Positions 3,674 through 4,102 of a stretch of 64,000 nt of DNA are shown in pieces (position 1 is the first letter of the stretch; every line of letters starts with the position of its first letter). A model generated the notes under the pieces. The model was not told the origin of the DNA and did not search any database. It saw only the letters and a list, made by a program, of their open reading frames with translations. Origin of the DNA: a virus (Duplodnaviria > Caudoviricetes); IMG/VR virus record IMGVR_UViG_3300028364_000013, one strand, 5' to 3'. Made by a program: the position numbers and the translations under genes.

Positions 3674-4102
3674 TTATGATGCTGTTTTTTTAATGTTATT
3701 AATATGAAAATTACTAACAGGGTCTTCTTTTATTCCTTGAGAATCAACCCACTGTTCGTAGTATTCTTTTTGAGCAAGACGTAAGCTACCTGTTAACCTA
3801 CGAGCTTGGTCGCATGCTTCAATAGCCATAGATGTTGCTTTATGATTTAAGTCTGGTTCACGAAATACAGAAACACACACTCCTCTTTGTCGAAGTTTTT
3901 CAACAAGAGACAATAAAGACTCTTCGTCTTCAATTGATAAACATGCTACGTATTGTGAATTTTCGTACCATTCCTTAAATTGGTCTGGATACTCGACTGC
4001 AAATTGAGACATTGCATGAGCCGATTGCGCAATTTGAGCTCCAGGATGCAAATCTCTTGTAACAACTATTCTAAGTTTTTCATTATTTTTTACCTATTTC
4101 AT
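3674..4102 (-). CDS. PTH2-family peptidyl-tRNA hydrolase-like protein with in-frame TAG at codon 3
   Basis: ATG(4102) AAA TAG GTA AAA AAT AAT GAA AAA CTT AGA = MK*VKNNEKLRIVVTRDLHPGAQIAQSAHA...FREPDL; PTH2 signature IVVxxDL...AQxxHA. Confidence 0.75.

Follow-up and report, generated by a model that had tools for sequence, protein, structure and literature searches.

A conserved UAG near the start of a Pth2-like phage gene, adjacent to an amber-suppressor tRNA, suggests a suppressor-gated cassette

A Pth2-like gene of a jumbo phage from lake water opens with ATG AAA TAG, which raises the question of how a protein could be made from a frame that meets a stop at its third codon. The gene lies on the minus strand of a 64,000-nucleotide stretch of viral DNA (Duplodnaviria; Caudoviricetes; IMG/VR record IMGVR_UViG_3300028364_000013), called the window below, and its features are listed in Table 1. 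Its first codons, ATG (4102-4100), AAA (4099-4097), TAG (4096-4094), GTA, AAA, AAT, AAT, GAA and AAA, are followed by CTT, AGA, ATA, GTT, GTT, ACA, AGA, GAT and TTG (4051-4049), and the frame stays open past the TAG up to a TAA at 3676-3674. The first-pass annotation had described this opening and had placed the first strand of the fold upstream of the TTG chosen by the ORF caller, reachable only from ATG 4102 through the TAG; we confirmed both points, the latter from the frame, the Pfam profile and an AlphaFold2 model in which strand 1 occupies residues 9-15, 5' of the caller's TTG at residue 18. Not one in-frame ATG, GTG or TTG lies between the TAG and strand 1. Automatic calls shorten the gene to 112 and 125 aa, and the database entry of 112 aa (P0010) begins at an ATG that drops strand 1. 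Starts at TTG 4051 or ATG 4012 would each delete strand 1, and we rejected them because a strand of a confidently folded sheet would be lost. We also considered a frameshift or homopolymer error, with translation from ATG 4083 (ATG AAA AAC TTA GAA TAG, preceded by a TAGGT box 8 nt 5') and a -1 shift, and rejected it because relatives are without that ATG. Our best reading is that the gene is intact and is translated from ATG 4102, meeting UAG at codon 3.

Table 1. Features of the pth region, with upstream motifs and 8-nt-loop tRNAs. Positions refer to the window unless another locus is named.
Feature	Position	Strand	Remarks
Erm/KsgA-like SAM methyltransferase gene	1622-2131	-	169 codons; conserved TAG at codon 17 (2081-2083), then GTG
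tRNA with 65-83-nt anticodon-arm insert	2148-2295	-	Leu-AAG by ARAGORN with introns allowed; Rfam
tRNA-Lys(CUU)	2552-2628	-	ARAGORN, Rfam
Amber-suppressor tRNA, anticodon CUA	2686-2758	-	7-nt loop UUCUAAC; ARAGORN, Rfam 63.2 bits
233-aa gene	2815-3516	+	between tRNA-Ile and tRNA-CUA; no Pfam hit
tRNA-Ile(GAU)-like	3574-3649	-	25 nt past pth stop; Rfam 43 bits
Pth2-like gene (pth)	3674-4102	-	142 codons; opens ATG AAA TAG
Degenerate copy TTTACGTATAAAAA of motif TTTGCGTATATATA	4135-4148	-	only copy before intact pth
370-aa homing-endonuclease-like gene	4171-5283	-	DUF723, treble-clef zinc fingers, CapR, DUF5889
Remnant of second pth 5' end	5310-5385	-	25 codons
Exact upstream motif TTTGCGTATATATA	5416-5429	-	precedes pth remnant
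TATTTATA-type motif, examples	2815, 22216-23052, 33732-34625, 43665-43970, 44032-48390, 48450-51830, 59839-60441, 60932-61900		
8-nt-loop tRNAs in relatives	L035 3374-3450, 3596-3672; L037 1246-1322; L044 3672-3748; G001 4818, 17799		

The product is predicted to adopt the Pth2 fold. Residues 9-109 align with positions 2-114 of the 115-position Pfam profile PTH2 (PF01981; E 5.6e-10; 39.9 bits against a curated cut-off of 23), and an AlphaFold2 model built from an alignment of 75 family members has a pLDDT of 91.1; its top 14 PDB hits consist entirely of Pth2-type entries. The fold is that of the archaeal and eukaryotic enzymes 2zv3, 1wn2, 1q7s, 3erj and 1xty (Foldseek E 1.6e-8 to 1.6e-6, with TM of 0.57-0.62 by query and 0.70-0.75 by target), and the AQxxHA segment is common to solved Pth2 enzymes and the phage protein. 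The phage family departs from these enzymes in having HPG in place of the G/S-K-G-K loop and REPD(Y/L)N in place of RDAG(H/L)T (in the profile-to-PDB alignment RDAGHT of 2zv3 stands opposite REPDYN, and the KGK residues face a gap), and the phage protein has an additional C-terminal helical tail (residues 112-141). A Lys, an Asp and a Thr of these two motifs are catalytic in S. solfataricus Pth2. Family members have invariant residues of their own (Q26, H29, W45, D84 and T90), and the protein falls below the cut-offs of the NCBIfam equivalogs PRK04322 (24.2 bits versus 126) and TIGR00283 (22.1 bits versus 82). Because two enzyme motifs are replaced and these scores lie so far under the cut-offs, we call the product Pth2-like: its earlier identification as a peptidyl-tRNA hydrolase holds for fold and profile and fails on the KGK loop, the DAGxT motif and the equivalog cut-offs, so that hydrolase activity is putative. 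The family comprises 1236 representative clusters at E up to 0.001. One member, in the cultured 320-kb Stenotrophomonas phage RAS14 (L090 2015-2800), forms the C-terminal part of a 261-aa protein and has neither an early stop nor a tRNA within 2.5 kb.

Comparison across homologs shows how far the early stop extends beyond this genome. A systematic table of 66 non-redundant loci contained an early in-frame stop in 33 (32 TAG, 1 TAA), and with the window and three phage-collection records the set comes to 37 loci, 36 with TAG and one with TAA. All 37 share the same layout, a start codon followed by 0-4 sense codons and a stop, and they reach down to approximately 36% protein identity, cultured mycobacteriophages among them. 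The check proposed with the first-pass annotation, for TAG at codons 3-5 of phage PTH2 homologs, was strongly positive: all close homologs (67-87% identity) and most distant ones (36-46%) have an in-frame TAG somewhere from codon 2 to codon 6. The 18 close loci open with ATG AAA TAG, ATG AAR AAR TAG or ATG AAA AAC TTA TAG, and the distant loci, which include 435-kb and 518-kb phages, with ATG, 1-4 varied sense codons and TAG; further openings are ATG TAG GTG in mycobacteriophage BadAgartude, GTG TAG GTG in mycobacteriophage Myrna and ATG AAG TAG ATT in the uncultured phage LR756500. Apart from the GTG after the TAG in the two mycobacteriophages, the 37 loci contain no canonical start from the stop up to strand 1. 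Homologs of 140-144 aa in the databases have the N-terminus MKQ(I/V)(S/T)NNEKLRIV, and the Q at their third position reflects a code-15 gene call and not a CAA or CAG codon, since the translation of P0002 matches its DNA solely with TAG as Q. These loci were recovered with an alignment query; a single-protein search of viral contigs returned no loci, and a megablast search of 12 kb of the window against the phage collection gave no match.

A lone in-frame stop near a start resembles a fresh nonsense mutation, and a pseudogene or an assembly error would look much the same. The chance that the stop is damage of this kind is negligible, as the 37 loci come from independent assemblies as well as cultured phages, the remaining frame is intact with a pLDDT of 91, and all sampled words of the stretch occur in two lake metagenome runs, though these runs may both represent the source sample. 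When mapped onto a maximum-likelihood tree of 50 sequences, the early-stop trait required 2 changes, compared to a mean of 15 for shuffled labels (0/500 shuffles as low), and it extends over branches of more than 0.5 changes per site. Even among near relatives (≥87% identity) the mini-ORF varies between 2 and 4 codons and the TAG is kept, which indicates selection on the stop and not on the peptide. Judged by these alignments, the early TAG is conserved, and damage is in practice refuted.

The tRNA genes beside pth suggest how the stop could be passed. An amber-suppressor tRNA lies 1.3 kb downstream in the window, and we found a tRNA-CUA in the fetched flank of 26 of the 37 early-stop loci (7 of the other 11 end at contig edges), typically on the strand of the TAG and 50-670 nt away from it. 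Close relatives are arranged as pth, approximately 20 nt, tRNA-Ile(GAU), 5 nt, tRNA-CUA; in several distant relatives the tRNA-CUA ends 50-130 nt 5' of the pth ATG, and the suppressor tRNA sequences are highly diverse across loci. Suppression as a way through the TAG, which had been suggested from the window sequence, is plausible because a tRNA-CUA adjoins pth both here and in most relatives. There are exceptions, which count against dependence on the tRNA: in the complete 518-kb phage L014 (ATG AAA TAG ATT) no tRNA-CUA was found among 55 tRNA hits, several of them with introns or odd loops and only partly assigned; nor was one found at L018, L047 and L069, whose flanks extend at least about 0.7-4 kb in both directions; and the L051/L054 lineage has TAA in place of TAG and no tRNA in 2.7 kb. 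Pth2-like genes with an ordinary ATG, mostly on gut-phage contigs, are also frequently close to a tRNA-CUA (300-600 nt at L015-L022, L026-L029, L061, L065, L079 and L082), so the pairing of gene and tRNA extends beyond loci with the early TAG. In Lak-B1 a tRNA-UUA takes the place of tRNA-CUA near the Pth2-like gene.

Other members of the tRNA cluster are less regular. ARAGORN, with introns allowed, reads the tRNA-Ile-like gene as Ile-GAT with a 2-nt insert; its anticodon loop has 9 nt (CUGAUAUUU), against 7 nt in relatives, where position 37 is often U or G. The gene may be a copy in decay or may carry a variant loop. The minus strand at 2296-2552, next to the tRNA with the anticodon-arm insert, contains two tRNA-like pieces; they have GGTTCGAATCC T-arms and acceptor ends that match, and neither ARAGORN nor Rfam reports them. 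In relatives, the tRNA-CUA clusters repeatedly include tRNAs whose anticodon loop has 8 nt and is given the four-base anticodon "gaaa" or "agaa" by ARAGORN (Table 1).

At the opposite end of the tRNA cluster from pth, a methyltransferase gene has a TAG at codon 17 that is invariant in 9 related loci. In these loci the 16 codons 5' of the TAG conserve their protein sequence and differ by synonymous changes, and two of the encoded residues, R5 and T7, are near-invariant across the wider methyltransferase family. The N-terminal segment aligns with solved Erm/KsgA enzymes from profile position 7, and a homolog that does not contain the TAG (P0075) is uninterrupted under table 11. A product begun after codon 17 would miss these conserved residues, which argues that UAG is read as a sense codon in these phages. 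The family column at the TAG contains differing polar residues (K, N, E, Q and others), too varied for us to name the inserted residue from it.

The codons that follow the TAGs bear on a different explanation, in which the TAG-ended short ORF is a leader and, after termination, translation restarts at the next codon with no need for a suppressor. A purine follows every early TAG in pth (33/33 loci of the table and the 4 others) and the TAG of 9/9 methyltransferases, and a purine at +4 is the classic efficient context for amber suppression in the passage of PMC6266110 that cites Bossi and Roth (1980) and Bossi (1983). The purine is in turn followed nearly always by T (ATT, GTT, GTA, GTG, ATA, ATG), so that the codon after the stop is nearly always RTN, one base from ATG or GTG; suppression leaves this T unexplained, which keeps restart alive, above all in the mycobacteriophages. 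In these phages the TAG is followed by GTG, which stands 7 nt from a preceding GGAGG or GAAGG box, an ideal Shine-Dalgarno spacing, and is the annotated start, making initiation after the TAG plausible there. The lineage with TAA, the complete genome with no visible tRNA-CUA and the NCBI annotation of P0006, which begins at ATT, also fit restart. However, any stop would serve for a leader, and the early stops are almost always TAG in AT-rich genomes in which TAA makes up approximately 80% of gene ends; in the 81-kb record TAA, the usual stop, closes 65 of 80 genes, so that TAG at the early position is a specific choice. Restart also leaves the tight linkage to tRNA-CUA unexplained, and some loci have GTA, GTT, GGA (L010), AAC (L018) or ACT (L069) as the following codon, all of which are very poor or non-start codons in bacterial initiation. 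In the methyltransferase, where R5 and T7 are part of the fold, it would yield a truncated enzyme. Overall we judge restart as the general explanation to be unlikely. On a 90-kb contig closely related to the phage region (L086; NCBI GCA_038044045.1), pth is likewise annotated from the ATT after the TAG; the contig sits in a bin labelled Nanoarchaeota but probably comes from a phage and was grouped with a cellular genome during binning.

If UAG is decoded at these genes, it could be because the whole phage uses genetic code 15, with the pth TAG one of many recoded codons and the rest beyond the available sequence. The record is estimated to be 25% complete, gut-phage relatives of the Pth2-like gene also adjoin tRNA-CUA, and recoding often covers a genome only in part (Borges et al., bioRxiv 10.1101/2021.08.26.457843). 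The phage does have a tRNA with anticodon CUA, as code-15 phages do. Nevertheless, coding density in the 81-kb record is 0.917 under code 11 and 0.919 with TAG as sense, a gain too small to support general recoding of TAG, and TGA recoding fared no better; nor did we find many in-frame TAGs in the record, the three credible ones all lying at the cassette locus (pth, the pth remnant and the methyltransferase). Genes of 1673, 1452 and 1126 aa contain no internal TAG, and TAG remains a terminator (TAA 65, TAG 8 and TGA 7 among the 80 genes). The pth TAG is also fixed at the 5' end across the clade and not scattered. These observations make genome-wide recoding very improbable, and within the 81-kb record the sequence indicates a standard code outside the cassette.

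In relatives without inserted genes, the cassette is compact and lies on one strand in the order upstream motif, pth with its TAG, tRNA-Ile, tRNA-CUA, further tRNAs and the methyltransferase with its TAG, from which it follows that tRNA-CUA and its two client genes probably form one transcription unit. The upstream motif, TTTGCGTATATA, occurs once per related locus and always 5' of pth. The conserved promoter that had been proposed for ATG 4102 is only partly borne out, as a locus-specific motif, but the intact gene is preceded only by a degenerate copy, whereas the exact motif stands before a remnant of a second pth 5' end. That remnant reads ATG AAA AAC TTA TAG (5371-5373) ATT and so on to HPGAQL, retains its TAG at codon 5, and is in frame with the downstream 370-aa gene, which sits between it and the intact pth. 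The 233-aa gene resembles the 370-aa gene in its C-terminal part, and we regard it as an insertion because tRNA-Ile and tRNA-CUA are 5 nt apart in relatives. From this arrangement we read both genes as mobile-gene insertions into the cassette, and the duplicated pth 5' end looks like the result of mobile-gene insertion or of recombination between lineages with different leader types. A GIY-YIG/NUMOD3 homing endonuclease gene at 6957-7670 (plus strand) marks the region as rich in mobile genes.

L014, the complete phage also labelled G001, retains the upstream motif, as TTTGCGTATAT, before its ATG AAA TAG ATT even at 37% protein identity. Many ATGs in the window are without a Shine-Dalgarno sequence and have a TATTTATA-type motif 10-25 nt 5' of the start (Table 1), which resembles a phage promoter followed by a very short leader, and a second motif, ACGTATA(T/A)A, precedes 4102, 5385, 16412 and 20445. 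A scan of 1500-5600 for sigma-70 promoters and terminators gave counts equal to those of shuffled sequence.

Comparative sequence evidence thus establishes an early TAG that is conserved, specific and tied to tRNA-CUA, together with a methyltransferase that needs read-through. We consider it probable that the locus is a cassette gated by its suppressor tRNA, in which both enzyme genes are fully translated only with an active, co-located tRNA-CUA. A layout common to dozens of distant phages makes the stop look like a built-in switch. The phage tRNA-CUA would decode UAG at codon 3 of pth, so that full-length Pth2-like protein would be produced only as long as transcription, processing and charging of the tRNA continue, and the same gate would apply to the methyltransferase at codon 17. 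We infer that the tRNA is expressed and charged and is the reader of these UAGs. With the stop at the extreme 5' end a failed passage should cost little, and the purine after the TAG should favour suppression. Our best guess is that the gate couples two enzymes of the translation apparatus to the presence of the phage tRNA set. In addition to the loci with no detected tRNA-CUA and the TAA lineage described above, the 8 phage genes that end in TAG speak against this reading, since a strong suppressor should be costly to them. A more elaborate version, in which the hydrolase obtained by UAG read-through strips the aminoacyl or peptidyl group from the suppressor tRNA and so closes a loop, we hold to be improbable. 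It would keep suppression at a level tolerable for a standard-code phage with TAG-terminated genes, forming an RF2-like homeostat from a tRNA and a hydrolase, and it would explain the adjacency of the two even where the hydrolase gene has an ordinary start, the two altered Pth2 motifs, and why the neighbours are the tRNA's only visible clients.

For the amber-suppressor tRNAs of many standard-code phages no target is known, and the cassette offers natural ones: two translation-related genes with UAG near the start, beside the tRNA. If suppressor gating is correct, this would be a simple natural switch that ties protein synthesis to the presence of one tRNA, and it may be a first step toward full stop-codon reassignment. 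For annotation, gene callers shorten such genes, as in the automatic calls above, or silently apply code 15. The existence of cultured carriers (cluster C mycobacteriophages of M. smegmatis) makes the idea directly testable. In the literature that we searched, which did not extend to subscription journals, we found no description of a TAG-gated arrangement of pth and tRNA-CUA. Iyer et al. regarded PTH2 of jumbo phages as a possible ribosome-rescue factor and did not remark on the stop.

The cassette shares features with several known systems and differs from each of them. The two-codon bar minigenes of phage lambda cause peptidyl-tRNA drop-off and are toxic when Pth is limiting. Like bar, pth in the window has a start, one sense codon and a stop, and there is a thematic link to Pth. 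On this model, drop-off, RF1 and suppression would compete at the stop and Pth output would report the need for Pth, an RF2-like feedback. Peptidyl-tRNA drop-off is frequent at chains of 1-5 residues, the length of the nascent chain at this stop; the only release factor that reads TAG is RF1, the fold of the product is that of Pth2, and AAA is the commonest second codon. The analogy broke down in several respects, however. Bar minigenes are free-standing, whereas the phage mini-ORF, of 1-5 sense codons, shares its frame in every case with a conserved gene of 140 codons; unlike bar it is TAG-specific and linked to tRNA-CUA, and its length and codons vary freely (Lys, Thr, Asn, Ser and Ile codons; peptides MK, MKNL, MKK, MTH, MN, MS and MI). 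AAA at codon 2 is merely common in AT-rich genes, the methyltransferase, which is no Pth, is gated likewise at codon 17, which would make far too long a minigene for drop-off, the GKGK loop and DAGxT are missing and the NCBIfam Pth2 score is 24 bits against a 126-bit cut-off, and we saw no feature that would link drop-off to more read-through. Such feedback therefore seems quite improbable, and of the earlier proposal that PTH output is tuned by RF1, drop-off and suppression, suppression stands and the feedback through RF1 and drop-off found no specific support.

RF2 is autoregulated through an early in-frame UGA in prfB. In prfB and in the cassette alike, a translation-apparatus gene meets an in-frame stop early on, and in both, passage would reflect the state of termination or decoding. 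prfB requires a programmed frameshift, whereas in the cassette the downstream frame is identical to that of the mini-ORF, a Shine-Dalgarno-like stimulator is absent and a dedicated tRNA is proposed instead. That the product feeds back on the decoding of its own stop is a feature of RF2 and, for the cassette, a proposal.

Code-15 phages have suppressor tRNAs and read TAG as Gln, and a stop that blocks translation until the tRNA arrives has been proposed as a timer in recoded phages (Borges et al., 10.1101/2021.08.26.457843; Peters et al., PMC9523058); peptidyl-tRNA hydrolase is unmentioned in Borges et al. These phages and the cassette both combine a phage tRNA-CUA with in-frame TAGs in phage genes. 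The cassette differs in that only two genes and one remnant contain an in-frame TAG in 81 kb, that TAG still ends genes and code-11 density is normal, that its clients are two translation-related enzymes beside the tRNA and not structural or lysis genes, and that its TAG is held at the extreme 5' end over a deep clade. Orphan amber-suppressor tRNAs also occur in Xanthomonas phage XacN1, by its paper (PMC5852040) a standard-code jumbo phage that, as here, has both tRNA-CUA (two genes) and a peptidyl-tRNA hydrolase gene, and whose authors could find no targets for these tRNAs; compared to XacN1 as described there, the cassette has targets that are visible as TAGs near the 5' ends of its genes.
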